Shown piece by piece: positions 11,043-38,421 of a stretch of DNA of 64,000 bases; the stretch's first letter is position 1, and every line of letters begins with the position of its first letter. The notes under the pieces are model-generated. The model had not been told where the DNA came from, did not search any database, and saw only the letters and a list, made by a program, of their open reading frames with translations. The position numbers were made by a program, and so were the translations under genes. The stretch lies in NCBI GenBank assembly GCA_963666985.2, contig CAXXIA010000002.1:2304001-2368000 (forward strand). Reading direction: 5' to 3'. The DNA is from Spirochaetia bacterium. Lineage in GTDB: Bacteria > Spirochaetota > Spirochaetia > DSM-2461.

Positions 11043-11129
11043 AGCATCTTTTTAGCGTGGTGTTCCGGAAATTCTAAGACGGCGAAACGGCGGTTTAATG
11101 GAACGAATTGAGGCCGCGGATAGGAAAGG

Positions 11130-11478: not shown

Positions 11479-12822
11479 TCAAAATATCAGGCTCCACCAT
11501 CCTCGATAAACAACGATGATGCTAAAAAGAACAATAAGAGTCAGAATTTTCGCATAGCGCAGGATTATGCCGCTTTTAAAATACTCGTTTCCCTCGCCAA
11601 TAATGATAATGACATGGTGAAAAGGAAAAAAAAAATGGGAACAGATACTGGTATAAATTAGGAATATCAGTATCTTCGGATCAATAATCCCCGAAGTGAT
11701 TGACGCGAGCCCCGGTACCACGATGGACATTGTTGTGATATTACTCCCAAGAATCATGTGCAGAAACATTGATATCCCTGTTACGGCGACAATCGGCATC
11801 AGTGTTCCGTTTCGCGGGATAAGGTTTGAAAATTTGGAGAAGAGTATAGAAGAAACTCCGCTTGCTTCCAGAGCAGGTCCAATGGCGAATGCCGCCGTTA
11901 AGAAAACCATCAATTCGAAATTTACGGATTTAATATCTTTTTTACCCAGCATACCGACTGCGAACATCAGCGCCGTACCTGCTGTTACGATAATGGCACC
12001 ATGTATTTTGTGGAAATCTTCCACCGCCCATAGAACAATAACCGCCAGTATAATTATGAGATTTGTTTTTTCTTTCGCCGTAAGGCGCAATTTTTTCGGT
12101 TTATTACTTGGAGGCTCTTTAAGAGGGCTAAAATCAGACAACTTTTTCCTGAAGGTGAAGAGAAATCCCGCAGCCGCCAAAAGGTAGAAAACAAAGGAAG
12201 GAACAGTCATTGCTTTTATCCATTCAAACTCCGTGATATCAAGGTTTCCCATAATCAGTATGGCGTTGTTTAAGATGATATCTCCCCGGATTAAGAACAT
12301 ATTAACGAAGGCCGAAGAGGCAAAAATCCAGAAGAGCAGAATTGACTTCAGTTCGGCATTTATTCTTTTTCGTTCAAGAAATTCGGAGAAAATCATTGCA
12401 AGCAGAATCACTCTGGAAAATGGCTGAGGAATAATAAAAATAAAAAGAATCTCCGCAAGGAATAAAACCGCCATGAAACGATGGGTATTGAGGGTATATT
12501 TTTCTATCAGCGGCTGTACCAGTTTTGCGGAGAGTCCGCTGTTGAGAATTCCTTGTGAGAACAGAAAAGAAAAAAGAATAGTCACAAAATTGGCTGATAA
12601 AGGGAAATGAAAAACCTTGTTAACAGGCAGTTCACTGAAGATTAAAAAAGCAAGCAGTAAAAAAAGAGAAGAGTAGAGTTTCCTTACCGCACCGGTAACC
12701 CATAGGATTATCGTTGCCGCCGTTGAAGAAAGAATAACAGTTTGTTCGACTGAAAGGCCGATCCAGAAAGCCATAGTCATAACGATAAGGACCATGAGAA
12801 TTGAAAGTGTATGCTTCAGCAT
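11479..12822 (-). CDS. SLC13/DASS-family (divalent anion:sodium symporter-like) transporter
   Basis: Highly hydrophobic 447 aa, 'IPQPFSR', 'HMILGS', 'FFPFHH' motifs; last gene of the SSS-buk-ptb run. Confidence 0.7.
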   Translation of the reverse strand: MLKHTLSILMVLIVMTMAFWIGLSVEQTVILSSTAATIILWVTGAVRKLYSSLFLLLAFLIFSELPVNKVFHFPLSANFVTILFSFLFSQGILNSGLSAKLVQPLIEKYTLNTHRFMAVLFLAEILFIFIIPQPFSRVILLAMIFSEFLERKRINAELKSILLFWIFASSAFVNMFLIRGDIILNNAILIMGNLDITEFEWIKAMTVPSFVFYLLAAAGFLFTFRKKLSDFSPLKEPPSNKPKKLRLTAKEKTNLIIILAVIVLWAVEDFHKIHGAIIVTAGTALMFAVGMLGKKDIKSVNFELMVFLTAAFAIGPALEASGVSSILFSKFSNLIPRNGTLMPIVAVTGISMFLHMILGSNITTMSIVVPGLASITSGIIDPKILIFLIYTSICSHFFFPFHHVIIIIGEGNEYFKSGIILRYAKILTLIVLFSIIVVYRGWWSLIF

Positions 12823-12898
12823 CTATAAGTTACCTAATTTTTTTTGTCGAAAATGATTCTTGTATATAAAGCGGAAATTTGCCGAAATGTTAAGTGAG

Positions 12899-12922
12899 AT
12901 CTTCGTGTTTTCACACGAAGAT
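12899..12922 (-). terminator. Hairpin between ptb and the DASS transporter gene
   Basis: ATCTTCGTGT-TTTC-ACACGAAGAT perfect 10-bp stem. Confidence 0.5.
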
Positions 12923-12932
12923 TCTCGTTCTA

Positions 12933-13826
12933 TTAAGCTATTAGGCAGGTTAGTGCCACAGCCAGAATCTTATTCCGGGCGGAATCCGTTCGTGAGGTCA
13001 TTACTATTGGAACTTCCGCACCCATAACAGCGGCGCCTACATCTTTTTGAGCGATGAATGTAATCGCTTTATGGAGGATATTTCCAACTTGAATATCCGG
13101 AACAATCAGTATGTCTGCATTTCCGGCAACTTCACTTGATATCCCTTTTCTCTCTGCGGCTTCTCTTGATATAGCATTGTCCAGAGCAAGAGGACCGTCG
13201 AATGTCGCTCCGGAAATTTGTCCCCTATCCCCCATCTTGCTGAGGATCGCGGCGTCCAGCGTTGCGGGCATTGCCGGATTAACATTTTCAAGTGCTGAGA
13301 GAAAAGCCACTTTGGGGTTATCCAATCCAAGCTTATGTGCAAGTTCGATGCAGTTTTCGGTTATCTGCTTCTTTTCCTGTAATCCCGGATTGATATTCAT
13401 GGCGCAGTCTGAAACAAGAAGCAGCCCGTCTCCGTTCGGTTTGTTTAATACCGATATTTGAGATATCAGTTTTCCCGTGTTTAGTCCTCTTTCTTTATCA
13501 ACAACGGCTTTCAAGAACGTCCCGGTATGGAGGAGTCCTTTCATAACGGAGTGAGCCTCGCCCGTCCTGACGAGTTCTACCGCTTTATAGGCCGCTTTAG
13601 CATGGTTCGGTTCATCAATTATCCGATAGCTGCAGTCTTTATTGTATTTCCCGGCGATATCTTCAATTTTCGATTTGTCTCCGACAAGAATAAAATCGGC
13701 AATACCTCTCTTTACGGCTTCCTCGGCGACTTCGAGCACCTCAATATCCTCTGCGGCAGCAACGGAGAGGGTTTTTGGGGGAGATTCAATAACAATATCC
13801 AATATATGGTTAAGGTTTTTAATCAT
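12933..13826 (-). CDS. ptb: Phosphate butyryltransferase (phosphate acyltransferase)
   Basis: 'VMKGLLHT', 'DGPLALDNAIS', 'AGNADILIVPDIQVGN', 'PIVMTSRTDS'; adjacent to buk. Confidence 0.93.
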   Translation of the reverse strand: MIKNLNHILDIVIESPPKTLSVAAAEDIEVLEVAEEAVKRGIADFILVGDKSKIEDIAGKYNKDCSYRIIDEPNHAKAAYKAVELVRTGEAHSVMKGLLHTGTFLKAVVDKERGLNTGKLISQISVLNKPNGDGLLLVSDCAMNINPGLQEKKQITENCIELAHKLGLDNPKVAFLSALENVNPAMPATLDAAILSKMGDRGQISGATFDGPLALDNAISREAAERKGISSEVAGNADILIVPDIQVGNILHKAITFIAQKDVGAAVMGAEVPIVMTSRTDSARNKILAVALTCLIA

Positions 13827-13843
13827 TTTTTTTCCTTTTGTAC

Positions 13844-14911
13844 TTAGTAAGTTTTAGCCGCTTCTTTCCCATGGAGATACCGGAGTGCGTTCTCCGCTAA
13901 CGAAAGCATTTCGTTTTCACCGGCTCTGATATACATTGGGGCAATAAACTCGGTTCTTTTTTTTATCCAGGAAACAATCCTTTCGGAATGAGCAAGACTT
14001 CCGGTAAGGATAATGGCATCTATATATCCCTCGAGCACACAGGCGCAGGCTCCAATTTCCTTGCATATCTGATACGTCATGGATTCCAGAACCTCAAGAG
14101 CATACTCATCCCCATTTATGATTTTTTCTTGCACTTCCAAAACGCTGTTTGTTCCGAGGTATGACATCAGTCCACCTTCACCTTTGATTTTTTTTACCAT
14201 TTCCTGTTCGGAAAACTTTCCGGAGAAGCACATCTTGATTAAATCTCCCGCTGGAACAGTCCCCGCTCGTTCAGGTGAAAACGGTCCGTCGCCGTCAAGT
14301 GCATTATTTACATCAATAACCTTTCCCATTCTGTGGGCGGCTACGGAAATTCCTCCTCCCAGATGAGCGACAATCAGGTTCAATTTTTCATAAGGAATCC
14401 CAAGTGTCTCGGAAACATTCCTTGCGGTTCTCTTTTGATTCAAAGCATGAAAAGAACTGATTCTTGGGATTTCCTTCATGCCTGAATAACGCGCCAAAGG
14501 TATAAACTCATCGGTAACGGGAGGATCGGCCACAATTACGGGTATCTTGTATTCCTGACCAATTTCATAGGAAATTATGTTTCCAACACTGGTCGGATGG
14601 GATCCGTATCGTTCGCTTTTCATATCTTCAACCATCTCTTCATTAAGAATGTAGATACCTCCTTCTACCGGTTTTAGAAGACCTCCCCGACAAGAAATGG
14701 CATCCAGAGTGGAAAGACTGATGTTATTTTTTTTCAGAACCTCAAGGATTTTGCTTTTTCTGAAATCCGTTTGTTCCCAGATTGTAATAAAGGGCTTGAG
14801 TTCATCTTGAGAGTGCGAGATGGATTCAGAGAAAACTTCCGCCATCTCGGAATAGAGGGACACCTTCGTAGAGGTGGAGCCCAGATTTATAATGAGAATA
14901 TTTTTTTTCAT
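13844..14911 (-). CDS. buk: Butyrate kinase (branched/short-chain acyl kinase)
   Basis: 'INLGSTSTK', 'RGGLLKP', 'HALNQK', 'HLGGGISV', 'GPFSPERAG', 'GENEM'; ATG at 14911 behind GGAG. Confidence 0.95.
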   Translation of the reverse strand: MKKNILIINLGSTSTKVSLYSEMAEVFSESISHSQDELKPFITIWEQTDFRKSKILEVLKKNNISLSTLDAISCRGGLLKPVEGGIYILNEEMVEDMKSERYGSHPTSVGNIISYEIGQEYKIPVIVADPPVTDEFIPLARYSGMKEIPRISSFHALNQKRTARNVSETLGIPYEKLNLIVAHLGGGISVAAHRMGKVIDVNNALDGDGPFSPERAGTVPAGDLIKMCFSGKFSEQEMVKKIKGEGGLMSYLGTNSVLEVQEKIINGDEYALEVLESMTYQICKEIGACACVLEGYIDAIILTGSLAHSERIVSWIKKRTEFIAPMYIRAGENEMLSLAENALRYLHGKEAAKTY

Positions 14912-14940
14912 GGCTGCTCCATTTGTGAACGAATAGAACA

Positions 14941-14962
14941 CTGCAGGGATGATTCCCTGCAG
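14941..14962 (-). terminator. Intercistronic hairpin between the SSS transporter gene and buk
   Basis: CTGCAGGGA-TGAT-TCCCTGCAG 9-bp stem. Confidence 0.45.
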
Positions 14963-15001
14963 ATCAATTAGTACGAATTTCTTATGGTGTTTTTTTTGTT
15001 T

Positions 15002-16489
15002 TTAGCTGTTTATTGTTACAGCTTCTTTCCCGAATTTCTCAAAGTATCCTTTTGTTCTGAAGAACGCCGGACGCTTATCGACGAGCATTACAATCAAGAA
15101 AACAATCGGACAAGTTATCAGATGGAGAAAAACAACATGAGGTAAGCCTGATGAGATTCCCGGAATTGCATACCATGCAACTATGTCGAGAAAACTCATA
15201 AGAATTATTGCGTTGGCCGTACTCTTTCGGCAGGCTTTCGGGATGTAGAGTGAAGCGATAAGAATGATGAAATAGCCCACACTTAGTGATAATCCCATTG
15301 TTGTGAACTTAAGGAGGGAATCAATATAGAATGCCGTGAAAAGGGCAATAAGGGAGAAAATAATACAAGCAGTCTTTGATAAGAGTATTTCCTTTTTATT
15401 GTTGGTTTTTTTACCTTTCTGCAATGGTCTGTAGACATCGTTAATAAAAAGGGCTGAGCCTCCAAGGATGTAAGTAGTTGCCGAAGAGACAACCGCTGCC
15501 CAGAGCCCCGCAAGAACGATACCTCCGATAATGCCGGGGAATGTCGTTACAACCATGGGAAGTGCCGCCGCGGTATTTTCAAGACCGGGGAAAAGATTGG
15601 TTGCGGCCATGCCCAGAAGGGCAGTAAAAAAACCGAAAGGCAGTACAAGCAGTCCGGCGATTAAGAATCCCCAGAATGCCGCTTTTTCATTTTTTGCGGA
15701 GAAAGCCGGCTGAATTGAGGCTGTGCCCGTCGGAACGTTAACCAGAAAAAGAAGGAGATAAGATATTGTTACTCCAAGTGTAAGTCCCTTAACCGGATGA
15801 AGATATAAACTTCGATCGGGAAGATTATTCACCATGGTGGTCAATCCCCCCGCTTGGGTTATCGAAAAGATAACCGCAATTGCTATACTGATATATAAAA
15901 GAACGATGTTGATTATGTTTGTTACACCGGCGGAAGATAATCCGCCGATCATCGCAATTGATATAAAGAGAAATGCCGACAAGATCATTCCTCCATTCAT
16001 GGAGAAGAACTGCGGCAACAGGCTGTTGAGGATGGCTCCTCCGGCAATATACTGGGATACCATGATCGTATAGATCATGAAAATTTGCCCAATAGATACA
16101 AGAGTTCGAGTCAACTCGCCGTAATAATCGCCATAGATTTCGGTTATTGTCGTAAGATTAAGTTTTCTTAGCTTCCTTACAAAAAGAAGTGCCGTAATGA
16201 TTATTCCAATACCGAAAGCACCGTCGTACCATCCGGCCGAGATACCGAACTTGTATCCGTTCTGGGCGATTCCAACGGTTCCATTTGCGCCAATGGCGGA
16301 ACCGACCAGGGTGAACATAACCAGAAAGGGACCAAATGATTTTCCCGCAAGCAGGAATCCTTCGGCGTTAGCCTCGGAATTGTTGATCCGTTCCAATCGC
16401 TTTTGTCTTATCTTTGCATAGAATGCAAAGATGAACAAAGCGAGCATGTATACTATTACAACTGATAGTGCTATTAGCTTACTATTCAT
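15002..16489 (-). CDS. Sodium:solute symporter (SSS/SLC5) family transporter
   Basis: 'FLLAGKSFG', 'GANGTVG...GYKFGIS', 'AAVVSSAT', about 13 TM segments. Confidence 0.9.
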   Translation of the reverse strand: MNSKLIALSVVIVYMLALFIFAFYAKIRQKRLERINNSEANAEGFLLAGKSFGPFLVMFTLVGSAIGANGTVGIAQNGYKFGISAGWYDGAFGIGIIITALLFVRKLRKLNLTTITEIYGDYYGELTRTLVSIGQIFMIYTIMVSQYIAGGAILNSLLPQFFSMNGGMILSAFLFISIAMIGGLSSAGVTNIINIVLLYISIAIAVIFSITQAGGLTTMVNNLPDRSLYLHPVKGLTLGVTISYLLLFLVNVPTGTASIQPAFSAKNEKAAFWGFLIAGLLVLPFGFFTALLGMAATNLFPGLENTAAALPMVVTTFPGIIGGIVLAGLWAAVVSSATTYILGGSALFINDVYRPLQKGKKTNNKKEILLSKTACIIFSLIALFTAFYIDSLLKFTTMGLSLSVGYFIILIASLYIPKACRKSTANAIILMSFLDIVAWYAIPGISSGLPHVVFLHLITCPIVFLIVMLVDKRPAFFRTKGYFEKFGKEAVTINS

Positions 16490-16701
16490 TATCTATAATC
16501 CTTTGATTTATTAATCTGATACCCGCAAGAACCGGCTTTCCAGGGAAATTGCTAAATGCTTTCCCTTTGCTACACGATGACAACAGTTTCACCATTCCAT
16601 TGAATTCGTGTGAAAGATTAAGCCGCATTCCGAATGTCCTTTTATGGAGACTCGCTATGAAGCTCAATCGTCCTTGATTCAAGGTATCCGTGAATCTTAA
16701 C

Positions 16702-16717
16702 AGCAATTCCTGTGCCA
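16702..16717 (-). promoter_or_regulatory. Sigma-54 (-24/-12) promoter for the SSS-buk-ptb-DASS operon
   Basis: Minus strand reads TGGCAC-AGGAA-TTGCT, an exact fit to TGGCAC-N5-TTGCW. Confidence 0.88.
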
Positions 16718-16779
16718 ATAAAAATAATTCCACGCTGTTTTATTAAGATGATTTTTTAAGCCTACGAATGAAAAGCTCC

Positions 16780-16819
16780 GTGTTGGGAAATAGAGAATTA
16801 TGTCTTGAATTCCCTACAC
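16780..16819. promoter_or_regulatory. Candidate upstream activator sequence for the sigma-54 activator
   Basis: Inverted repeat GTGTTGGGAA (16780-16789) / TTCCCTACAC (16810-16819), one mismatch, and a TGT-N12-ACA box (16801-16818), lying between two divergent sigma-54 promoters. Confidence 0.6.
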
Positions 16820-16949
16820 TTTCCTGGGGAATCACTCTGTTCGATATCGGGCTTTAAAAGAGGACGGTGTGATCTTATTTTAACGGCTGCTGTTGTATAA
16901 GCTCGATTATCGGGATATTCCAAAGATTGTTTTTTTTAAATTATCCGGA

Positions 16950-16965
16950 TGGCATATAAATTGCA
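16950..16965 (+). promoter_or_regulatory. Sigma-54 (-24/-12) promoter for the BKACE gene
   Basis: TGGCAT-ATAAA-TTGCA with correct GG-N10-GC spacing, 57 nt before the ATG. Confidence 0.85.
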
Positions 16966-17022
16966 AAAACATTAAGTCAACAGTTTCACCGAATTAAACA
17001 GAAAAACCAAGGAGACTTAATA

Positions 17023-17904
17023 ATGGCAAGGAAAGTAATTATTACGGCGGCTCTCACCGGGGCGTTTCATGGAAAAGAAGTCAATCCCAATCTTCCGGAA
17101 CAGCCCGATGAAATTGCCCAGCAGGTACAAGATTGCTGCAATGCGGGAGCATCAATTGCCCACATCCATGCAAGAGACAAGAACGGGAAATCCAGTGTTG
17201 ATCCGGCCATATTCAGTGAGATAAACAGTAAAGTCAGAGCCAGATGTCCGATTATTATTCAGAATTCAACGGCTCCGGCCACTCGCGACGGAGCTGTGGC
17301 TGATGACGGATTGGCTCTTCTGAATGCGAAAGATGTTGTTCTCCCTGAGATGTGCTCTCTTGACTGTTCTCTCATTGCCACTACCTGGCAAGATCGTACA
17401 TGGATTTATGAGTGGACCAGAGAATGGCTGATAAAAGCATCAAAACTTATGCATGAAAAGAAGATTAAGCCGGAATTGGAGATTTTTAATCCCACATCAA
17501 TTGAAGATGTGGTTAATTATGTCTATCCCTCGGGTTATCTTAAGGAACCGCTTTCTTTCAGCTTTGTTATGGGTATGGATAAAGCCAGTCAGCAGGCGAT
17601 GGAATTTTCGATTGATAATCTAATGTATATGATTAATAAAATTCCTAAAGGCAGTTTTTTTTCCTGTCTGGCTATTGCTCAGCACCAGCTCCCCGGCACA
17701 GGACTGGCCATGCTTCTAGGCGGAAATATTCGGGTTGGAATGGAAGATAATGTGTTTTATCGAAAGGGAGAGCTTGCCAAAAGCAATGCTCAACTGGTTG
17801 AACGAGCAGCCGGAATTGTCAGGGAATTTGGTTTTGAAGTGGCTACTCCGGAAGAAGCCAGATCGATGTTGGGTATTCCTCAGCTTGCTGAGAGCGGCAG
17901 ATAA
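17023..17904 (+). CDS. Beta-keto acid cleavage enzyme (BKACE/Kce, DUF849 family)
   Basis: 'IITAALTGA', Zn ligands 'HIHARD', 'KPELEIF', 'RVGMEDN', 'ATPEEARSMLG'; AAGGAG SD. Confidence 0.92.
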   Translation: MARKVIITAALTGAFHGKEVNPNLPEQPDEIAQQVQDCCNAGASIAHIHARDKNGKSSVDPAIFSEINSKVRARCPIIIQNSTAPATRDGAVADDGLALLNAKDVVLPEMCSLDCSLIATTWQDRTWIYEWTREWLIKASKLMHEKKIKPELEIFNPTSIEDVVNYVYPSGYLKEPLSFSFVMGMDKASQQAMEFSIDNLMYMINKIPKGSFFSCLAIAQHQLPGTGLAMLLGGNIRVGMEDNVFYRKGELAKSNAQLVERAAGIVREFGFEVATPEEARSMLGIPQLAESGR

Positions 17905-18318
17905 ACAAATCTGATTTTCAAGTCCTGCATGTCGTCGGAGAGATGAAAAAGTTCATTTCTCCGCTTTGCATTCAATTTATGATGATTACTGATTCCGATT
18001 GATTAGAAAAGATCGAATGTTTATTAAATCACTTTTTTAAAATTCTGAAAACAAAACGGAACGGCGCAATCCAACTGTTTGAATTAAATGCCGAAGACTG
18101 TGGAATCGGAACAGTTTTTGTTTTTAAAGTTTCTTGCGATCTGGTAATTCCGGCTTTACAATAATGTGCGATTCAATTCGGCGGTTTTTAAATATCTTCG
18201 GAAATACGGGATTCGGCTGTCGGGAATAATTTGTAAATGGTGACTATTCACAGCTTAAGAGAAAAAACATATTTTTACAGCATGATTTATAAGCTTCTAT
18301 GTTGGAGATCGGAATCAT

Positions 18319-19734
18319 ATGTGCCTAAGCAACTGGCTTGAAGATGGAACCCTGGATTTGGAAACGAAGGCTTTTTTAGCCAATACCAGTATGGAGATTC
18401 TCGGTGGTATTGTAATTATTGATGAAAATGGCCGGATTGTTTATATGAATGATAAGTATGCCGATTCCATGCAGATTGATAAGAGTACGGCACTCGGAAG
18501 AAATATCGGTGAAATCATTGAGAATACCGAGATGCTCAGTGTTCTTAATTCAGGAAGAACGGATATCGGAGTGCTTTACTCAAGGAATGACAACAATTTT
18601 ATTGTTAATCGTTTTCCTATAATAAAGGATAATAAAATAGTTGGAGAAATCGGGCATTCCACATTTGCTGATATATACGAACATGAGAAATTGAAAAAAA
18701 AGATCAATTATATAAAACGAGAGCTTAACTATTACAAATCCCGAGTAAAAGCGTCGACAACCGCCAAGTATAGCCTTGATGATATTGTTACTGAAAATGA
18801 AGATATGCTGGAACTGAAAAGATTGACGGCGAAAATTGCCTCTACAAGATCCACTGTATTGATTTCGGGGGAGAGCGGTACGGGAAAGGAACTCTTTGCT
18901 CATGCTGTCCATGCATTGAGCCCTCGTTCTCAGAATCCTTTCATTCGGATCAACTGTGCCGCAATACCCGATAATCTATTGGAATCGGAGCTTTTCGGTT
19001 ATGAAGAGGGCTCCTTTACCGGAGCTGTTAAAGGGGGTAAAAAGGGTCTCTTTGAGGAAGCTCACGGAGGTACGATCCTTTTGGATGAGGTTGATTCTCT
19101 GTCGGTCAATCTGCAATCAAAACTTCTTCGAACAATACAGGAACGCGAAATAAAGAAGATCGGAGGCATCAATACAATAAATATCGATATCAGATTTATC
19201 TTTACTACGAATAAAAGTCTTCAGGATATGGTTGATAAAGGGACTTTCCGAGAGGATCTGTATTATCGAATAAATGTTGTTAACCTTAAAATACCTCCTC
19301 TCCGCGAAAGGATGGATGATCTTTTATTGCTGGTGGATCGTTTAATTGAGAAACTGAACCATGAACTTGGAATGAATATCGTCGGTATTGAAAAAGAAGC
19401 GTTCAAACTGCTTTGCGGCTGGCGGTGGCCGGGAAATATCAGAGAACTGGAAAACTGTCTTGAGAGGGCCTTTAATTATGCTTTATGTGGTTCTTTAAAA
19501 AAGGATCATTTTGAATATCTGGTCAATCAGGATTCGGGACGTTTGCCCGCCGAAGAGGAGTCTGATAACTGCCTTTCTTTACGGGGAGTTAGAGCTTCTG
19601 CTGAAAGGGATACCATTATTCGGGTTTTGGAGCTGGTGAGGGGAAATAAAAAAAGGGCGGCTTCGATTCTTGAGATTGATCGAAGTGTTCTTTACGACAA
19701 AATCCATAAATATCGTATTGGCAAAATTGCTTAA
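18319..19734 (+). CDS. Sigma-54-dependent transcriptional activator (PAS + AAA+ + Fis HTH)
   Basis: Walker A 'GESGTGKE', 'ESELFGYEEGSFTGA' (GAFTGA variant), 'WPGNIRELEN', C-terminal HTH; N-terminal PAS-like region. Confidence 0.95.
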   Translation: MCLSNWLEDGTLDLETKAFLANTSMEILGGIVIIDENGRIVYMNDKYADSMQIDKSTALGRNIGEIIENTEMLSVLNSGRTDIGVLYSRNDNNFIVNRFPIIKDNKIVGEIGHSTFADIYEHEKLKKKINYIKRELNYYKSRVKASTTAKYSLDDIVTENEDMLELKRLTAKIASTRSTVLISGESGTGKELFAHAVHALSPRSQNPFIRINCAAIPDNLLESELFGYEEGSFTGAVKGGKKGLFEEAHGGTILLDEVDSLSVNLQSKLLRTIQEREIKKIGGINTINIDIRFIFTTNKSLQDMVDKGTFREDLYYRINVVNLKIPPLRERMDDLLLLVDRLIEKLNHELGMNIVGIEKEAFKLLCGWRWPGNIRELENCLERAFNYALCGSLKKDHFEYLVNQDSGRLPAEEESDNCLSLRGVRASAERDTIIRVLELVRGNKKRAASILEIDRSVLYDKIHKYRIGKIA

Positions 19735-27960: not shown

Positions 27961-28233
27961 GCTATCTCCTATGGTTTTCGGCCCGTATTTTTTTATAAGA
28001 GACACAACCAAGGATGAAGCGAGGTAACAAAATGTGCCTTAATACAAATAACGGAAGTGGAAAATTACTTAATTCTGAATGAAATAACCATATTCTTTCA
28101 AGCCGCCGGCTGTTCGGATCCTATCGGGAAGAATGAAAATATCCTTATTTCTGTAAACGGCCGTGAGTTGAGTGTATTTTATGTCCGCCTCTTGTATCTT
28201 TGAGAAGACTTCCATCGAATCCGGAGCCTGCTT

Positions 28234-28878
28234 ATGACGCGAAAAGTCTTCTGGGACAATCCCTACCTTACAACCTTAACAACTCGGATCGCCCATGTTG
28301 ACGGATCGGATGTTTTTCTTGAAGAAACAATCTTCTTCGCGTTCTCGGGCGGTCAGGAAAGTGATGCCGGCTCCATCGCCGGGAAGTCCGTAATCCGCGC
28401 GGAAGTCCGGGACCGGGAGATTGCCTACACACTTTCGGATAACCATGGACTGAGTGCGGGAGACTCGGTTGTTATTCTGATTGACCGGGAGAGACGATAC
28501 CGCCTGATGAAGCTTCATTTTGCGGCGGAACTCGTTCTGGAAACGGTTTATCGAACTTTTCCCGGAATTGAAAAGATTGGGGCTCATATTTCGGAGCACA
28601 AAGCACGGCTGGACTTTCTCCTGAATGAGAGTATTACTCCGTATCTTCAAAAGATTTCCGATAACGTAACGGCTTTGATTCAATCGGATTATCCGATAAT
28701 AAGCGATTATGAGGACAAAGACACCGAACGAAGATACTGGAAAATCGATGGATTTGCCCAAGTCCCCTGCGGCGGAACACATCTGAAAACAACAGGAGAA
28801 ATCGGACCAATTCGACTGAAACGCAATAACATCGGAAAAGGGAAAGAACGTATTGAAATCGAATTGAGTTCGATTTGA
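28234..28878 (+). CDS. alaX: Free-standing alanyl-tRNA editing protein (AlaX-M type)
   Basis: 'FFAFSGGQESDAG', 'MKLHFAAEL', Zn motif 'PCGGTH', 'GKGKERIEI'. Confidence 0.85.
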   Translation: MTRKVFWDNPYLTTLTTRIAHVDGSDVFLEETIFFAFSGGQESDAGSIAGKSVIRAEVRDREIAYTLSDNHGLSAGDSVVILIDRERRYRLMKLHFAAELVLETVYRTFPGIEKIGAHISEHKARLDFLLNESITPYLQKISDNVTALIQSDYPIISDYEDKDTERRYWKIDGFAQVPCGGTHLKTTGEIGPIRLKRNNIGKGKERIEIELSSI

Positions 28879-29135
28879 CTTCTTTTATGAGAATTACGTT
28901 CGGTTGAGGCAATTTCATAATTCTTGAAATTGTTTATATTCGATGGCCGAAATCCCTTAAAATCGCTGATTTTAAAGCCGCTTCGGTTAATAAACCGGAT
29001 AAGAATGGGACTGAAATATCGCCGGTTCATTGAAGTCCGTTTATATGTGTTTCTATATTATGCCGTAGTTAATGGATGCAAAGTTCGATATCTTAGGAAA
29101 TAGAGAAATATTTTTATAAAACTTACCGAACTTAT

Positions 29136-30497
29136 TTAAAATGATCTCCTTAATTCTTGGGGTGATTCAATACTATAAAGTGACTGTTTGATTAAGTCTT
29201 TCCTCTTTGCGTTTCTGAGTAAGAAGAAAGCAATAATTAATGTTAAAAACTCTGCCGTTCCTACTGTATACCAGATAATCCCGTTGCCAAATATTATCGG
29301 CATAATAAATATGGCCAATGGAGTTATTAGTAGACATCTGGAGCATGCGATAATTACTGCGTATTTTGTTTGCTTGGTTGAATAGAAAAATGTCGTTGTC
29401 AGAAGATTTGCAGACATAATCATAAACGCCCAGCTGAAAGAAGTTAAGGCCTTTGTCGTTGTTTGTATCAGTAATAGATCTGAATTAAACAGCATGGTTA
29501 TGCTTTTTTTGAAAATAAAAAGGAGGGAAAAAACTGTAAAGGCGCTTGAAACGTTGATGACCATACCTGAATTGAAATAGTACTTTAAATCATTTTCATT
29601 CCGTCGGCCATAACTTTGTCCCAATAAAGGTTGCAATCCTTCAGATACACCCATAAATATACCTAAAGAGAAAGAAGTCAAATATGTTATAATGGAAAAA
29701 GCGGATACTGAAATATCTCCTATTTGACGAATTAGAATGTAATTCATACAAAGTGTCATGATTGGCATACCCATTTGTGAAATCATTTCCGGAAGACCGC
29801 GAAGAATTATTTTTTTTATAAGAGTCGAAGATATTGAAAACTGTTTAATCCGTATCCGCAATCTGCCTTTATGGTGAATAAAATGATTTATCAAGATTAA
29901 AAAGCTGATTGCCTGTCCTAATCCGGATGCTATTGCTGCTCCTTTTACACCCATCTTAAAAGGGAAAACAAAAAGCCAGTCAAAAAATATATTTATGACT
30001 GCTCCCGAAATAACAGCAGCGCTAACAAGAATGGGAGCACCATCATTCCTAACAAATCCTTGCAATATGATGTTGCATAGAAGAGGGAGCGAAAAAGCGC
30101 TTACATAGAAAAGGTATTCTTCTGTCATTTTAGAGAATGTATTATTTGCACCGCTTAATTCAGCTATCTTTTTTGCGAAAATCATTCCCATTGTCATAAA
30201 TATGATTCCCAGTAAAAAGGCCATTGTGGCTGAATGCATAAATGCATTGTTTGCACCTTCTACATCTTCTCTACCGAGGCGTATCGCAGTGACTGTAGTT
30301 CCTCCGATAGTTAGTAAAATAGCAAAGGCATTTGCCATTAGTGTAAATGGTACTGCAAGGTTGACTGCTCCTAGAGCGTCTACACCTATACCTCGGCCTA
30401 CGAATATACCATCCACTATTACGTATAAAAATGTTGTTGTGGATCCTGCTACGGTGGGTAGAATATATCGATAGAGATTTTGAGTTTGTTTTTTCAT
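29136..30497 (-). CDS. MATE family efflux transporter
   Basis: 'YVIVDGIFVG...ALGAVN', 'FVRNDGAP', 'MGVKGAAIAS', 'GLQPLLGQSYG'. Confidence 0.93.
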   Translation of the reverse strand: MKKQTQNLYRYILPTVAGSTTTFLYVIVDGIFVGRGIGVDALGAVNLAVPFTLMANAFAILLTIGGTTVTAIRLGREDVEGANNAFMHSATMAFLLGIIFMTMGMIFAKKIAELSGANNTFSKMTEEYLFYVSAFSLPLLCNIILQGFVRNDGAPILVSAAVISGAVINIFFDWLFVFPFKMGVKGAAIASGLGQAISFLILINHFIHHKGRLRIRIKQFSISSTLIKKIILRGLPEMISQMGMPIMTLCMNYILIRQIGDISVSAFSIITYLTSFSLGIFMGVSEGLQPLLGQSYGRRNENDLKYYFNSGMVINVSSAFTVFSLLFIFKKSITMLFNSDLLLIQTTTKALTSFSWAFMIMSANLLTTTFFYSTKQTKYAVIIACSRCLLITPLAIFIMPIIFGNGIIWYTVGTAEFLTLIIAFFLLRNAKRKDLIKQSLYSIESPQELRRSF

Positions 30498-30514
30498 TTA
30501 AACTTTTTTCCAAT

Positions 30515-30961
30515 TTAACAAAGATATGCAGTCTCTTCTTTGAATAGATCTAAATATTTTTTTGAATATTGAAGCATTCCGGCACGTTCTTCTTTTGTCA
30601 TTCGTTTCCATGTTTGTTCTTCCGCTTGGAAAACAGTCTCTATAAATTCACAAGAGAAATTGTATCCAGATTGTGTTATTTCTATGATTTTGCTTCTTCT
30701 GTCATTTTCTGATTCCTTGAGAATTATAAATCCATTCTTCTCAATTTCTTTAAGAGCGCTATTGACTGTTTGCTTGCTCATTGACCATTGATCGCAGATG
30801 TCTTTTTGAGTGCAGTGATTACTCATCTCGTAAATTGCATAAAGAACCCAATATCCGCTTTCCGATAGTTTGCTTCTTCTTGCCAATTTTTTATAGATTG
30901 CATCAGTTTGCTTCCAAATTGAATAGTATTCTTGCAATTGAGTATGCAGTTTATTTTGCAT
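30515..30961 (-). CDS. MarR-family transcriptional regulator
   Basis: 'CTQKDIC...SKQTVNSALKEIEKNGFI...DRRSK' winged HTH; directly upstream of the MATE gene. Confidence 0.92.
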   Translation of the reverse strand: MQNKLHTQLQEYYSIWKQTDAIYKKLARRSKLSESGYWVLYAIYEMSNHCTQKDICDQWSMSKQTVNSALKEIEKNGFIILKESENDRRSKIIEITQSGYNFSCEFIETVFQAEEQTWKRMTKEERAGMLQYSKKYLDLFKEETAYLC

Positions 30962-30962
30962 C

Positions 30963-31010
30963 TTATCTGCCTTATATTAGTCCGATATCGGACTAATATA
31001 AGGCAGATAA
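30963..31010. promoter_or_regulatory. Perfect 48-bp palindrome, probable MarR operator
   Basis: TTATCTGCCTTATATTAGTCCGAT|ATCGGACTAATATAAGGCAGATAA, no mismatch and no spacer, 1 nt from the marR start codon. Confidence 0.75.
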
Positions 31011-31180
31011 TGAAAAAATGTCAATGCGATGAATCAAAAAAATATTACTATTGGGAACTCATTGTTATATATCGGAATAGAACATGGGGAGGACCAAGTG
31101 TGTATGCTGAGCTGACATTGGCATATTATTATTGCAAATGCATGGAGGCTGGAGTTTTATTTCCTGCGAAACGATCATCT

Positions 31181-31358
31181 CTAGTCACAATGATGTGAGC
31201 CGAATGCCCCCCTCACAAAATCGTAGATTACGCTTTTGTGAGACACACAGCAGCGCAGAGCTACATACGAGGGGGGCACTATGAAGGTTAGCACGAAGGT
31301 CGGGCGGTTTGTAGTTTTGGACGTTCACGCTGAGACCATCGCGGCAGCAGGGTGTTGA
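31181..31358 (+). mobile_element. IS110-family left-end remnant: structured non-coding leader plus 25 codons of truncated transposase
   Basis: 31281-31358 translates MKVSTKVGRFVVLDVHAETIAAAGC*, resembling the DEDD recombinase N-terminus (G-L-D-V-H-x-x-T-I-A); leader has IR TGCCCCCCTC/GAGGGGGGCA covering the SD; left boundary approximate. Confidence 0.65.
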
Positions 31359-31396
31359 AATCCCCACCCCATGCCCCCTCCATGGCAAAATAACGA

Positions 31397-31564
31397 TAGC
31401 AGTCTGTTGAAAAAAAAGAGATTTGGTTCGGAGATAGCGAGCGAGACTTGCAGCTCGATGCTGCCGGAGCACAGAAAGCGCAGTGTAGTGGAGCTACATA
31501 AGCATTCCGAGCACCGCCGAACGGCCGTATACGGGCTATAAGATTCTTTTTCAACAGTCTGCTA
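31397..31564. mobile_element. MITE-like non-autonomous element, about 168 bp
   Basis: Terminal inverted repeats TAGCAGTCTGTTGAAAAA / TTTTTCAACAGTCTGCTA (1 mismatch), TA at both ends, internal hairpins, no credible ORF. Confidence 0.75.
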
Positions 31565-31600
31565 GAAACGTCTGCGGATTCTTCAAACCGATTATTTTTT

Positions 31601-32566
31601 TTAAATACCTATTCCTTCTGTAGCCGAAGGAGGACTTAACCTTTGAATCAATATGGGATGCGCTTCCTCTTCCAGATGGTATTGGGCCCACTGTGAAGGT
31701 GGGACACCTGTCTTTTTTTTGAATAATCGTGAAAAGTAATATTGATCCTCGAAAGCCAACTTATGTGCGATTTCCTTGATGCTGAGTTTTCCGATTTCAA
31801 GCAATTCCTTAGCTTTGTTAACCTTAAGGTGTAGGTAAAATTGATAGGGAGTCATCCCCGTGTACGATTTGAATACTTCTCCGAGGTATGACGTACTGAG
31901 ATGAAGTTTTCCTGCGACTTCCTCTAATTCAATATTCCCATATAGATTTTCCTGTAGAATGAATTTCGTCTTTTCTACCAGCGTATCTGAATTACGGCCG
32001 TGCTCCTGGCTTCGATCGTAACTAATAATTTCAGCAAGGAGCATTATGATATTCGCGGAAATCCTGTATTGATAATGAGGGCGCTGTTTTTCTACACGAT
32101 CAAAAATCGTATCATATAAACGCACAATAACATTATGTAATCCAATATAATATACCGGTTTTTCCGGAGAAATGACTCCTTCCGACTGAAGTGCTTCGAG
32201 GTATTCTCCCTTCACTCCCACCCAATACTCATTCCATCCGATATCATCATCCGGTTTATATGCATGTTTTACTCCGGGGAAAAGTAGCATTATCGTCCCC
32301 GGGATGACTGTATACTCCCTGCCTCTGGACACAAACCTTCCCCGGCCTTTGGTAATATAGACTATTTGATATTCGGATAAAATTCGTGATGTGGCCACAG
32401 CTTTGAACGCTTTCGGATGCTTCTCAAGATTTGGCGGATAAGATGTGCTGGCCCCGATTTCATTAGACCCTACATCCGTACAGATAAGCTGCCATTTGAG
32501 GTCATCATCCGAGTAGGTCAGGTAAGTCGAGAAATTTTTAATATCCGGCCTCCTTCTTTTCGCCAT
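31601..32566 (-). CDS. AraC-family transcriptional regulator (cupin + double HTH)
   Basis: 'YQIVYITKGRG', 'FKSYTGMTPYQF', 'FEDQYYFSRLFKKKTGVPPS'; start 32566 preferred because ATG 32614 falls in the predicted operator repeats. Confidence 0.92.
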   Translation of the reverse strand: MAKRRRPDIKNFSTYLTYSDDDLKWQLICTDVGSNEIGASTSYPPNLEKHPKAFKAVATSRILSEYQIVYITKGRGRFVSRGREYTVIPGTIMLLFPGVKHAYKPDDDIGWNEYWVGVKGEYLEALQSEGVISPEKPVYYIGLHNVIVRLYDTIFDRVEKQRPHYQYRISANIIMLLAEIISYDRSQEHGRNSDTLVEKTKFILQENLYGNIELEEVAGKLHLSTSYLGEVFKSYTGMTPYQFYLHLKVNKAKELLEIGKLSIKEIAHKLAFEDQYYFSRLFKKKTGVPPSQWAQYHLEEEAHPILIQRLSPPSATEGIGI

Positions 32567-32604
32567 TTTACAACAGGCATCTTTAAAGCTGTTGTGATTC
32601 CGTA

Positions 32605-32680
32605 AAAAATCCATTCCTTAAATAGTTCTGTCCATCATATCCAGAGAAAGTCTATGCCTGTTACGTGAAAAGTCCATTTC
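32605..32680 (+). promoter_or_regulatory. Candidate AraC-type direct-repeat binding sites
   Basis: TCCAT/TCTAT cores at 32610, 32631, 32651 and 32673 (spacing 21/20/22 nt), three preceded by A-runs, in the araC/rhaM divergent region. Confidence 0.6.
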
Positions 32681-32738
32681 TTAACGGAGAATCCCTGGAG
32701 GATAGTAGTTCTACTACGATAAAGACGGAGTCGACAAC

Positions 32739-33053
32739 ATGAATCAGGTAGCGTTTAAAATGCAGCTTAAACCCGGTTTTAAAGAAGAGTACAAGAAACG
32801 TCACGATGAAATTTGGCCTGAATTGCATGCCGCCTTGGCTGAAGCCGGTGTCTATGACTATGCAATTTATTTGGATAAAGAAACGCTGACACTTTTCGCT
32901 GTTCAGAAATTGAAGGATGGGGAGACTACCTCCGAACTTCCCGACAATCCGGTTGTTAGGAAGTGGTGGGATTATATGGCCGATATCATGGAAACCTATT
33001 CGGATAGGGCCCCGGTTTGTATCGGTCTTCAAGAAGTCTTTTACATGGAGTAG
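32739..33053 (+). CDS. rhaM: L-rhamnose mutarotase family protein
   Basis: 'AFKMQLKPG..EEYKKRHDEIWPEL', 'KWWDYMADIM', 'EVFYME'. Confidence 0.88.
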   Translation: MNQVAFKMQLKPGFKEEYKKRHDEIWPELHAALAEAGVYDYAIYLDKETLTLFAVQKLKDGETTSELPDNPVVRKWWDYMADIMETYSDRAPVCIGLQEVFYME

Positions 33054-33057
33054 GGAG

Positions 33058-34482
33058 ATGAATAAACCCGTCACCATAGGTCTATACGGAATCGGATTAG
33101 ATACATACTGGCCTCAATTCGTAGGTTTGGAAGACCGGTTGAAGGGTTATCTCGGAGAGATCGCCGATCGCCTCAATAAGGATAATATTCGAATTATTAA
33201 TGCCGGATTGGTGGACAATCCGACATCTGCCCGGGAGAAGGGGCGGATATTCAAATCGGAAAACGTTGAGATTATCGTTCTCTATATATCAACCTATGCA
33301 CTCTCCTCTACAGTTCTGCCGGTTGTACAGTCAGTGGGAGTTCCGGTGATTGTTCTGAATTTGCAACCGGTATCTCGAATTGATTATGAGTCATTCAATG
33401 CTCTTGGAGACAGAGAAAGAATGACTGGAGAATGGCTGGCGCATTGCCAAGCATGCTCCGTACCGGAAGTGGCTAACATTTTTAACCGATCGAGTATCCC
33501 TTACCACTTAATTACCGGTTATTTAAAGGAAGAGAGAGTCTGGAGAGAGGTTGATGAATGGCTGGATGCCGTTGTGGTGAAGGCCGGAATACGAGACGGG
33601 CGAATCGGTATACTCGGACATTACTACAACGGCATGCTCGATGTTTATACCGATATCACATTGATGTCGGTAGTATTCGGGACGCATTTTGAGTTGCTTG
33701 AAATGTGTGAGCTGAAAACTCTACGTGATGCTGTTTTACCTGAAGTTTTGGAAAATAAAATCCATCAGTTTCATAGGGAGTTTGAAGTATCGGATGAATG
33801 CGAATCCTCTGAGATTGAACGTGCCGCACTTACTTCCTGTGCGCTTGACGCTCTGGTTGAGAGGAATTCATTGGATGCTATGGCCTATTACTACGAAGGA
33901 TCAAGCGGAAATGATTATGAGAATATCGTTACTTCATTGATTGCCGGCAATACACTGTTGACCGCGCATAACGTCCCTATTGCGGGAGAATGCGAGATAA
34001 AGAATGTCATGGCTATGAAAATCATGGATCTGTTCGGTGTTGGAGGCTCCTTCTCGGAGCTCTATGCTATGGATTTCATTGATGACATCGTAATGTGGGG
34101 ACATGATGGTCCGGCCCATGCGGCTATAGCTGAGGATAGTGTCGGTCTCGTACCGCTTCCAGTCTATCACGGGAAGCCTGGGAAAGGGCTGTCCATACAA
34201 ATGTCGGTGAAGAACGGACCGGTTACTCTGCTAGCGGTCGTTCAGGGTTGTAAAGGGAAAACTTTTCTTCTCTGTGCCGAAGGCGAATCGGTAGTTGGGC
34301 CGGTTTTAAATATCGGCAATACCAATTCCCGATATAAATTCCCGCTATCTGCACGGGATTTCATTGAAGCTTGGTCTCTTCGGGGACCATCTCATCATTG
34401 CACCATCGGCATCGGTCATATTTCCGGCAAATTGGAAAAACTGGCATCGCTTTTAGGTATTGAGTGTATAAAAGTCTGCTGA
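33058..34482 (+). CDS. L-fucose/L-arabinose isomerase-family sugar isomerase
   Basis: 'GLDTYWPQF', metal-ligand motifs 'AGECE', 'SFSE', 'GHDGPAH', 'GPSHH'; ATG 33058 behind GGAG. Confidence 0.85.
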   Translation: MNKPVTIGLYGIGLDTYWPQFVGLEDRLKGYLGEIADRLNKDNIRIINAGLVDNPTSAREKGRIFKSENVEIIVLYISTYALSSTVLPVVQSVGVPVIVLNLQPVSRIDYESFNALGDRERMTGEWLAHCQACSVPEVANIFNRSSIPYHLITGYLKEERVWREVDEWLDAVVVKAGIRDGRIGILGHYYNGMLDVYTDITLMSVVFGTHFELLEMCELKTLRDAVLPEVLENKIHQFHREFEVSDECESSEIERAALTSCALDALVERNSLDAMAYYYEGSSGNDYENIVTSLIAGNTLLTAHNVPIAGECEIKNVMAMKIMDLFGVGGSFSELYAMDFIDDIVMWGHDGPAHAAIAEDSVGLVPLPVYHGKPGKGLSIQMSVKNGPVTLLAVVQGCKGKTFLLCAEGESVVGPVLNIGNTNSRYKFPLSARDFIEAWSLRGPSHHCTIGIGHISGKLEKLASLLGIECIKVC

Positions 34483-34549
34483 CTGCTGAAAGGTTTATCC
34501 TCCGCTTTTGCGGAGAAGGATGTGAAGGTAAATGTTCTTTAGGAGGGAC

Positions 34550-35551
34550 ATGATGAAAAAACTGAGCATGATCGTGCTGTTTCTGGTAGTGTCGGGGATG
34601 CTGTATGCCAATGGCGGCAGTGACAAAAAAGCAGATGATGAAATCATCATCGGTTTTAACAATGGTTCCACTACGGTGAATTTCCTGCGTTTGGTCGGTG
34701 AAAGTATGGAAAAAGCCGCCGCGGATTACGGGATTAAGATCCTTGTTGCCGAATCGAATTTCGAAGCTGAGAAGATTTTGCCGAATGTCGACAACATGCT
34801 GGTCCAGGGTGCGGATATCATTGTTGATTTTAATGTAAATGCAGAAATCGGCGGCAGCTTGGTTGACTATTGCGGTGAACAGGGAATACCCGTCATCGGA
34901 GTAGATGTGCTTTATACCGGAGCCGATGGAGCCGAAGGCTATTTTTTTGGCGCCAATAATCAAATGGCCGGAGAAGTGGCGGGCGGTGGCCTGGCTGATG
35001 CCGTTAAGGTGAATTGGGGGGGGGAGATCGATACTTTCCTTGCCTTTTTCAACTCGGAAAACGGCGATTTGGTCCGTCTGCGTCTTTCCGGAATGATCGA
35101 TGGAATGCGAAATGCAGGCATCAAGATTGCTGATGACCAGATTGAATGGATTGAGATGGGTGGCGGTGGATCCGATACAACATTGACGGCCAATCAGAAG
35201 ATGACCGACTGGCTGACCGCCCATCCCGATTTAAATAAAATTGCCGTGGGAACTGTTAATTGCGAAACTGGTCAAGGTGTATTCTCTGCTGTTCAGGCTG
35301 CCGGTCGCGACTCGGATGTATTCCTCGCGACCAACAACAACGGTGCTCAGACTTTGGCGGCTTTCGAGCAAGGTGAGAATATGTGGCTTGGCGGAACCGA
35401 GTACTTTCCCAATCGCTATGGTGAATACATTGTACCTATGGCTTTGGATATCCTGGCCGGTAAGGATGTACCGAGGGTTCTGACGATGGAGCATGAGTTT
35501 TTAACTCGTGATGACATTCCGGCAATCAAGGCCGCCAACGGAATCGAGTAG
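34550..35551 (+). CDS. Monosaccharide ABC transporter substrate-binding protein (RbsB-like, CUT2)
   Basis: Signal 'MLYANGG', 'GIPVIGVD', 'FFGANN..AG', 'WLTAHPD'; AGGAGG SD. Confidence 0.9.
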   Translation: MMKKLSMIVLFLVVSGMLYANGGSDKKADDEIIIGFNNGSTTVNFLRLVGESMEKAAADYGIKILVAESNFEAEKILPNVDNMLVQGADIIVDFNVNAEIGGSLVDYCGEQGIPVIGVDVLYTGADGAEGYFFGANNQMAGEVAGGGLADAVKVNWGGEIDTFLAFFNSENGDLVRLRLSGMIDGMRNAGIKIADDQIEWIEMGGGGSDTTLTANQKMTDWLTAHPDLNKIAVGTVNCETGQGVFSAVQAAGRDSDVFLATNNNGAQTLAAFEQGENMWLGGTEYFPNRYGEYIVPMALDILAGKDVPRVLTMEHEFLTRDDIPAIKAANGIE

Positions 35552-35620
35552 ATCCCTATAATCAACATCAGCACCGCTTGGATCTGTGATTCTGGGCGGT
35601 GTTTTACTTTGGAAAGTAGA

Positions 35621-38102: not shown

Positions 38103-38421
38103 CTGTAATTAAACTTAAGTTTTTAGAGGTCTTTTCAAAATGCACCTTTGATTCGTATACAGCGTTTGGCGGTTCCCGAAAAGCCCATATATCTGCACTG
38201 CATTGCGGTTTTATGCTCCGGCGGCCTTGTCTGTAAAACCAAATCCATTGTTTTGAGAAGGCCTTTTTATAAAAAATATTTGATAAGGAGGGATGGACTT
38301 CTCCATGCTTTATATTCTCTTCATTCGATGTCTGTTTCTTATATCTATCTTATATGGATGATTCAATAAGAATAAAATTAAATTGGGAGATGAGCCTCCC
38401 ATGTTCTCTATACGGCAAAAA

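Follow-up and report, generated by a model that had tools for sequence, protein, structure and literature searches.

The window studied here, a 64,000-nucleotide stretch of the genome of a Spirochaetia bacterium, carries a block of six genes encoding an enzyme for the cleavage of beta-keto acids (BKACE), a phosphotransacylase (Ptb), a butyrate-kinase-family acyl kinase (Buk), a sodium:solute symporter (SSS), a DASS-type carrier and a sigma-54 activator. Judged by comparison with related loci, the block is a real, conserved and uncharacterised six-gene catabolic unit that would operate in the manner of other BKACE pathways. Its BKACE represents a new, uncharacterised clade within an established family, outside every curated BKACE subfamily. 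The predicted flow runs from an imported beta-keto acid to an exported free acid, with an aromatic substrate as the tentative choice.

Conservation of the block and its BKACE clade

Genome searches with the BKACE clade alignment as query gave 5 matches in 401 genomes of the order of locus L008, 2 in 59 genomes of the family of L004 (where the copy in L004 itself is truncated at the end of its contig), 3 in 121 genomes of the family of G808, and 22 in 301 sampled genomes of the family of L002 (Oscillospiraceae); a sample of 399 genomes from G063's class gave 0, a count that is a floor. Among the bacterium's own relatives, no clade member was found in 60 genomes (best identity 40%), nor in 170 genomes of its class. 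The named relatives, at 63–74% identity, belong to Bacillota, and named cultured carriers of the clade are Fusibacter ferrireducens, F. paucivorans, Aminipila butyrica and Papillibacter cinnamivorans.

A sequence-only reading of the window had suggested searching other genomes for BKACE genes near buk and ptb, and this co-conservation was borne out. The complete six-gene set occurs in four Bacillota genomes of one family (G786, G765, G819 and G771), which account for four of the five matches in the 401 genomes. Identity to these genomes was 71–74% for BKACE, 55–58% for SSS, 50–53% for Buk, 48–50% for Ptb, 40–44% for DASS and 32–37% for the activator, whose nearest mapped relatives are 51–52% identical (L180 and L181, that of L180 being the closest). 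Three further genomes (G061, G500 and G063) combine BKACE, buk, activator and a DASS-type carrier, with the SSS gene missing from the set; ptb is also present in G061 and G500, and in G063 the contig ends. As kin genomes are not independent, the Ptb/Buk-type carriers represent about three lineages plus the window. Near non-clade BKACE genes, ptb or buk was found in none of 105 control loci, 34 of which had at least 4 kb on each side; this control left out the sole exception seen, a BKACE–thiolase–ptb–buk operon of the same genome. That second operon (L032:6370–15482; G000:C2:2290370–2299482), unrelated to the block and about 5–14 kb before the window, encodes a BKACE (39% identity), a thiolase, Ptb, a Buk with another distinct motif set, a crotonase-like protein, a 3-hydroxyacyl-CoA dehydrogenase and two proteins of the 4-hydroxybutyryl-CoA-dehydratase/HpaB family.

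The BKACE matched profile PF05853, and its predicted model (pLDDT 91.6) showed a TIM-barrel fold with TM scores of 0.84–0.89 to solved BKACEs, the top match being Kce (TM 0.86). The zinc ligands H47, H49 and E241 and the catalytic residues E151, R237 and D242 were invariant in 61 of 61 aligned relatives. Apart from the catalytic Glu and Arg, we take these residues to act as they do in Kce; for that Glu and Arg, roles in BKACEs are given in the available text of PMC11961710. Scores fell below the cut-offs of the curated models for Kce (NF052387, 248 versus 382 bits), for the 3,5-dioxohexanoate/triacetate acetoacetate-lyase (NF053538, 161 versus 430) and for the 3-oxoadipate BKACE of group G4 (NF053568, 171 versus 350). 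The position of the amine-binding Glu14 of Kce, which is Trp in triacetate lyase according to the available text of PMC10470551, is occupied by F15. Lysine-type, triacetate, 3-oxoadipate and carnitine substrates were rejected on pocket residue, profile cut-off and gene context; the carnitine dehydrogenase and thioesterase neighbours typical of CdhC are not present in the block.

A pocket signature (F15, Q80, P85, M110, S112, D114, L117 and W131) was invariant in the 61 aligned sequences. It was complete in 10 of 13 other tabulated clade loci, the remaining three differing only by L117 to I, and a fourteenth tabulated row, L060, departs from it at several positions. All six BKACE paralogues of the same genome lack the signature, and in four of them G and N correspond to P85 and W131. 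The genome totals seven BKACEs, and two of the paralogues (G000:C1:735049–735879 and C1:54232–55059) bear Trp at the Glu14 position. A search for fused forms yielded one match among 7,998 longer candidates, P0416, which lies outside the clade and is weak evidence; it is a 755-aa fusion of a BKACE with an MFS carrier, 33% identical to the query BKACE.

The Ptb–Buk module, direction of flow and energy balance

Buk scored 479 bits against TIGR02707 (cut-off 289). Ptb, with 354 bits against TIGR02706 (cut-off 410) and 369 against NF004472 (cut-off 399), is predicted to work like a phosphate butyryltransferase though below the family cut-offs; its best PDB match was 7VG9 (E 8e-84). In Buk, the motifs HPTSVG and SSFH stand where solved and housekeeping enzymes have HASNLG and SIFH, stretches that presumably line the acyl pocket. 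All 13 Buks of BKACE and oxidoreductase loci are without HASNLG and cluster apart from housekeeping Buks (SH-aLRT 90), which suggests an unstudied acyl-kinase group serving two different upstream enzymes. Elsewhere in the genome, a housekeeping-type Buk (L038:7154–8395; G000:C2:395160–396395) carries an insertion of about 55 residues rich in Ala and Glu.

We mapped 43 clade loci, leaving out the very short L054 and L121; L051 and L175 are identical in sequence. Within 6 kb of BKACE, buk was present in 10 of the 43, and a fused 520-aa CoA-transferase without buk in 22; the CoA-transferase is of AbfT type in L179 and belongs to family III in L060, and nine loci, most of them near contig ends, show neither buk nor CoA-transferase. 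Locus L182 reproduces the gene order of G786 (activator–DASS–CoA-transferase / SSS–BKACE) with one gene replacing ptb–buk, and Ptb/Buk loci are scattered over separate places on the BKACE tree. The nearest Buks (57–67%) lie in four-subunit 2-oxoacid:ferredoxin oxidoreductase–buk–ptb–DASS operons in three of three genomes examined, two of which have a separate TRAP importer, and the nearest mapped Ptb relatives (58–60%) lie in operons of the same kind. These operons (L146:7278–13547, L200:6225–12201 and L201:4952–11323; two with IclR and TRAP) are possibly of phenylglyoxylate type. An ABC binding protein and a C-GCAxxG-C-C protein in L146, L180 and L183 were considered as a link and rejected, being merely 25–32% alike; the frames F51 and F52 adjoining L051 are apparently spurious or unrelated genes.

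Oxidoreductases of this kind form acyl-CoA. Because the same module trails an acyl-CoA-forming enzyme, it would convert acyl-CoA to acid and ATP, followed by export. This placement and the replacement of ptb–buk by a CoA-transferase together make it probable that Ptb and Buk discharge the acyl-CoA and that flow runs in this direction. Since the net ATP gain equals that of the CoA-transferase version, Ptb and Buk are best regarded as an exchangeable terminal module within a BKACE clade that is broader and undescribed, and not as its defining novelty.

Comparison also favors, if less firmly, the carrier roles proposed earlier. Of 13 mapped copies of DASS, 10 directly follow the discharging gene, either ptb or a CoA-transferase, and SSS directly precedes BKACE in five of six loci, the window being the rearranged exception; the window's SSS is 55–58% identical to orthologues preceding BKACE. 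An ESM Atlas search with this carrier returned matches labelled merely "SSS family". On balance, SSS appears to import the substrate and DASS to export the acid.

In the resulting scheme, SSS would import a beta-keto acid, for which an aroylacetate is the likeliest candidate (benzoylacetate itself or a derivative substituted on the ring), and BKACE would cleave it with acetyl-CoA to aroyl-CoA and acetoacetate. Ptb and the variant Buk would convert the aroyl-CoA to free acid and ATP, DASS would export the acid, and acetoacetate would be recycled by a CoA-transferase and a thiolase encoded outside the block. The predicted sum, R-CO-CH2-COO- + ADP + Pi -> R-COO- + acetate + ATP, contains no redox step. 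Taken whole, with the aromatic substrate included, this is our best explanation, to which we give a little less than an even chance.

Substrate-level phosphorylation had been proposed from the window, and comparison supports that direction; the ATP made by Ptb and Buk would nevertheless be gross and not extra, because BKACE spends one acetyl-CoA. By this accounting the net gain would be one ATP with acetoacetate recycling and zero without it, and the CoA-transferase version should give the same net ATP through acetate kinase. Hydrolysis of acetoacetate to two acetates releases about -48 kJ/mol, roughly one ATP. AtoD/AtoA and thiolase are encoded at two other places in the genome, and AtoA-like genes occur in five of five Ptb/Buk-type genomes tested. 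In L145 an AtoDA-like pair stands beside buk–ptb behind a sigma-54 motif, and a thiolase operon in L142 and L143 is likewise preceded by one. As net ATP needs recycling genes elsewhere, the description of the block as self-contained was overstated: rpoN, the acetoacetate CoA-transferase and the thiolase lie outside it, and no gene in it makes a beta-keto acid.

Substrate assignment and competing explanations

No substrate had been assigned to the block before; the question is not wholly open, since gene context points to aromatic beta-keto acids. We tentatively favor an aromatic substrate, with aroylacetates leading, at somewhat under even confidence. In most sister loci there are, in addition, a dehydrogenase of the 3HCDH family, whose closest matches are free-acid enzymes of the lambda-crystallin type, and a cupin-like protein of 153 aa that belongs to no named family; their route would lead from 3-hydroxy acid to 3-keto acid to acyl-CoA. 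The cupin-like family (L178:6168–6626 and 18 other loci) has a conserved H-x-H...E...H pattern and always sits between the dehydrogenase and the CoA-transferase slot, making it a candidate hydratase or isomerase; ESM Atlas matches to it were merely "hypothetical". UbiD/UbiX of the protocatechuate-decarboxylase (AroY) type occur in 3 of the 43 clade loci, preceding BKACE on one strand in L196 and following the CoA-transferase behind a sigma-54 motif in L180. Two loci contain an aldehyde oxidoreductase-type molybdoenzyme and two an ene-reductase. A BKACE subclade at 48% identity (L145:2727–13637 and L195:2–7384) combines BKACE, buk and ptb with a cyclase-family hydrolase, to which L195 adds a three-subunit xanthine-dehydrogenase-type enzyme and TRAP. 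It is a candidate for anaerobic ring opening of N- or O-heterocycles and, speculatively, would fit ring-opened aroylacetates such as 2-aminobenzoylacetate. The clade member P0051 is named Papillibacter cinnamivorans, an organism that converts cinnamate to benzoate and acetate according to the available text of PMC6956005; these are exactly the products predicted for the clade pathway.

Several observations weigh against an aromatic substrate. The aromatic markers sit in relatives outside the window's own subgroup: AroY is present in only three of the 43 loci, and two of those three are 82% alike; an AroY orthologue is absent from the bacterium's own genome (best 33%) and from five genomes tested (best 38%). 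Orthologues of the clade dehydrogenase and cupin are absent from its genome and from the Ptb/Buk-type genomes tested, and no beta-keto-acid source was found in the block or elsewhere; the keto acid could possibly come from cross-feeding or from an unrecognised upstream enzyme. The phloretin-hydrolase family gave no match in the genome, where the positive control was likewise empty. Genome G1020 holds as many as 19 BKACE candidates, so that other genes may account for its use of cinnamate. BKACEs are promiscuous, and the separate Buk grouping has an SH-aLRT of only 90. The oxidoreductase beside the nearest Buks scored 348 bits for PadG (phenylglyoxylate), 465 for the pyruvate model and 326 for the ketoisovalerate model; the PadG score is no better than those of the other two models, and the enzyme does not type as phenylglyoxylate-specific.

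More broadly, the clade might form the core of an undescribed anaerobic side-chain shortening of phenylpropanoids as free acids, a full route that we consider rather doubtful. The aroylacetate would be made by a hydratase, a role that the cupin may fill, together with a 3-hydroxy-acid dehydrogenase; BKACE would cut it to aroyl-CoA, and a CoA-transferase, or Ptb with the variant Buk, would release benzoate, protocatechuate or anthranilate. The Ptb/Buk form would make ATP via the aroyl phosphate. In the stretch analysed, the clade-dehydrogenase locus of G1020 contains a DMT carrier and an MFS gene only, and no hydratase.

The strongest alternative, unlikely in our view, keeps the same flow and replaces the substrate by a non-aromatic hydrophobic beta-keto acid, such as beta-ketoisocaproate, which would give isobutyryl-CoA, or an alicyclic or heterocyclic one. 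All flow evidence fits it equally. The Glu14 position holds an apolar residue, F15, and aliphatic keto acids are the substrates of most BKACEs screened from the apolar group; the beta subunit of the oxidoreductase by the nearest Buk was best matched by the 3-methyl-2-oxobutanoate model (350 bits, under its cut-off). Housekeeping Buks near branched-chain-type oxidoreductases keep HASNLG, however, whereas the 13 Buks of the group have lost it, and AroY in the same operon or regulon would be left unexplained.

That Buk and Ptb chiefly re-activate acetoacetate, through acetoacetyl-phosphate to acetoacetyl-CoA at the expense of ATP, either alone or as a two-step CoA-transferase from the acyl-CoA, appears improbable. 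Clostridial Ptb is active on acetoacetyl-CoA. The pair fills the slot of a CoA-transferase able to do both jobs, and Ptb–Buk is reversible and promiscuous in the available text of PMC3000843. Yet the same Buk group trails a 2-oxoacid oxidoreductase, where no acetoacetate arises, and L145 has buk–ptb together with its AtoDA-like pair. A different reaction on the BKACE fold, such as cleavage of a 1,3-diketone or of a cyclic precursor imported whole, would account for the missing beta-keto-acid-making gene and for W131 and P85 in place of the N and G of four of the six paralogues, and the fold includes epoxide hydrolase, oxalate-forming and decarboxylating members. We think it quite improbable: the catalytic residues are invariant throughout the alignment, and most sister loci pair BKACE with a free-3-hydroxy-acid-type dehydrogenase and a CoA-transferase, the usual BKACE grammar.

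The reverse direction, in which an imported acid would be activated by Buk and Ptb using ATP and condensed with acetoacetate for export as a beta-keto acid, is very improbable. BKACE reactions are reversible, and this version is without the upstream dehydrogenase; such a path would cost ATP with no visible gain, the dehydrogenase and downstream decarboxylase of sister loci would pull towards acid release, and the Buk group elsewhere trails an oxidative decarboxylase. Chance assembly in an acquired island, or an ordinary butyrate ptb–buk pair beside an unrelated BKACE, is hardly credible: Buk, Ptb and the activator of the window all have nearer relatives in other operons than in the matching clusters, so that parts have been exchanged, but the set recurs in seven other genomes with motifs on both arms, the control loci carry no ptb or buk, and the block has no thiolase, crotonase or Hbd.

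Among known systems, the lower part of the phloroglucinol pathway in Clostridium scatologenes (TfD, triacetate acetoacetate-lyase (TAL), CoA-transferase and thiolase), as set out in the available text of PMC10470551, similarly cleaves a free beta-keto acid anaerobically with acetyl-CoA, recycles acetoacetate and gains ATP via phosphotransacylase and kinase further down, its butyrate kinase acting downstream in ordinary butyrate formation. From what that text gives, the residue of TAL at the Glu14 position is Trp and its product is acetoacetyl-CoA, whereas the window's BKACE has F15, W131 and P85, and its regulon includes ptb–buk along with two carriers and lacks genes for ring opening. Kce of lysine fermentation (2Y7D/2Y7F) is the best structural match, with zinc ligands and catalytic residues aligned and kept; it differs in its amine-binding Glu14, replaced here by F15, and in the removal of its product by an ammonia lyase, here by Ptb and Buk. 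Clostridial Ptb–Buk (7VG9), Thermotoga Buk2 (1X9J) and the 2-oxoacid oxidoreductase–ptb–buk operons of amino-acid fermenters belong to the same families with the same predicted chemistry; the window's Buk has variant motifs, and the pair would be fed by BKACE and not by beta-oxidation or an oxidoreductase.

The carnitine pathway has the gene order CdhC–CdhA–CdhB, that is, BKACE (group G5), dehydrogenase and thioesterase, and sister loci resemble it with BKACE, a 3HCDH-family dehydrogenase and the 153-aa protein. Unlike a thioesterase, this protein is cupin-like, the thioester would be conserved and not hydrolysed, and the sister dehydrogenase scored 123 bits against a carnitine-dehydrogenase cut-off of 592. 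Denitrifying aromatic degraders use CoA-dependent beta-oxidation from cinnamate or benzoylacetate to benzoyl-CoA, in which a ligase step costs ATP and the CoA ester is split by a thiolase. The same aroyl-CoA would arise from an aryl C3 side chain in both cases; here, by contrast, cleavage would act on the free keto acid, ATP would come from discharge of the aroyl-CoA, and the ring would stay intact. The available text of the NetSyn preprint (10.1101/2023.02.15.528638) lists valine/leucine, carnitine, lysine-type and aromatic BKACE contexts, a Ptb/Buk context not being among them. The available texts of the literature searched, mainly open papers (including PMC4922564, PMC6486533 and PMC6449761), described neither a BKACE cluster that includes Ptb/Buk nor a route from cinnamates that uses a BKACE; the supplementary BKACE contexts of NetSyn may bear on novelty.

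If correct, the proposed scheme would describe a redox-free fermentation living on one carbon–carbon cleavage, in which an acyl phosphate, probably an aromatic one, would supply ATP at substrate level, and would put genes to a step in the anaerobic turnover of plant phenolics that still lacks assigned enzymes; the available text of PMC11130242 calls gut phenolic metabolism "largely unknown". The full route, if true, would explain the cinnamate-to-benzoate fermentation of Papillibacter, gut Oscillospiraceae carrying the clade could make hydroxybenzoates from dietary cinnamates, and dehydrogenase-less carriers such as the window's would be cross-feeders on carbon–carbon cleavage alone. With an aliphatic substrate, the unit would be a new but modest offshoot of an enzyme system already known.

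Gene layout, promoters and composition

The six genes were confirmed as intact open reading frames with matches to the profiles of their assigned families (Table 1). For buk, the likeliest start codon is the ATG at 14911, with GGAG upstream and a 355-aa product that matches a database protein; the open reading frame list places it at a GTG further upstream.

Table 1. Genes and sequence elements of the block, in window coordinates
Feature	Position	Strand	Details
Divergent DASS/CitMHS-like carrier	11479–12822	-	447 aa; predicted product-acid exporter; CitMHS/Na_sulph_symp profiles
Perfect 10-bp inverted repeat, ptb/DASS gap	12899–12922	strand-neutral	
ptb, phosphotransacylase (Ptb-like)	12933–13826	-	297 aa
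buk, butyrate-kinase-family acyl kinase	13844–14911	-	355 aa; HPTSVG and SSFH motifs
Hairpin, SSS/buk gap	14941–14962	-	
SSS, sodium:solute symporter	15002–16489	-	495 aa; SSF profile; predicted substrate importer
Sigma-54 -24/-12 motif, SSS–buk–ptb–DASS arm	16703–16717	-	exact consensus match
Candidate activator site between promoters	16780–16819		two 10-bp arms, 9/10 complementary, 20 bp apart; read by eye
Sigma-54 -24/-12 motif, BKACE gene	16950–16964	+	one mismatch
BKACE (PF05853)	17023–17904	+	293 aa
Terminator-like hairpin 3' of BKACE	17936–17963	+	
Sigma-54 activator, PAS-AAA+-Fis HTH	18319–19734	+	471 aa; Sigma54_activat and PAS profiles

The earlier assignment of sigma-54 promoters to both arms held. 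A motif scan gave two matches in the whole window against 2.5 expected by chance; both fall within the 533-bp divergent gap, each facing outward to its arm, an arrangement reproduced in 1 of 20,000 shuffles of that gap. In related loci, sigma-54 motifs again precede buk, SSS, BKACE or the CoA-transferase. The activator has the loop sequence GSFTGA, and the genome carries one rpoN, outside the block. With motifs, AAA+ activator and rpoN all present, the block is predicted to form a sigma-54 regulon. The activator gene has no sigma-54 motif of its own and sits 414 bp past a hairpin. The inverted-repeat scan did not report the candidate activator site, and sigma-70 and terminator scans gave matches at chance level.

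The block is AT-richer than its surroundings, as had been noted: its GC content is 0.417 versus a genome mean of 0.512, a value equally low in 3.3% of 2,417 same-size windows, and the GC3 of its genes is 0.38–0.45 versus a median of 0.59 in 1,808 long open reading frames. Because low GC coincides with absence of the clade from relatives and with named 63–74% relatives in Bacillota, acquisition from Bacillota would be the simplest reading of the block's origin.

An intergenic element of about 70 bp (window 11053–11123) lies just beyond the left end of the block and has five more genome copies at 78–92% identity. In two other genomes, a sigma-54 operon encoding thiolase, 3HCDH, CoA-transferase, GntP and SDR proteins, together with a second DASS carrier, adjoins the six-gene unit (L142:433–9382 and L143:10401–12883). 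At L133:10419–10886 the second DASS-type carrier is just 155 aa long, with an apparent internal deletion and the sigma-54 motif retained. A second AT-rich stretch of the window (28001–40065; GC 0.34–0.49) encodes MATE and AraC proteins, an arabinose-isomerase-like gene and a sugar ABC system, and includes a DDE transposase at 38485–40065.

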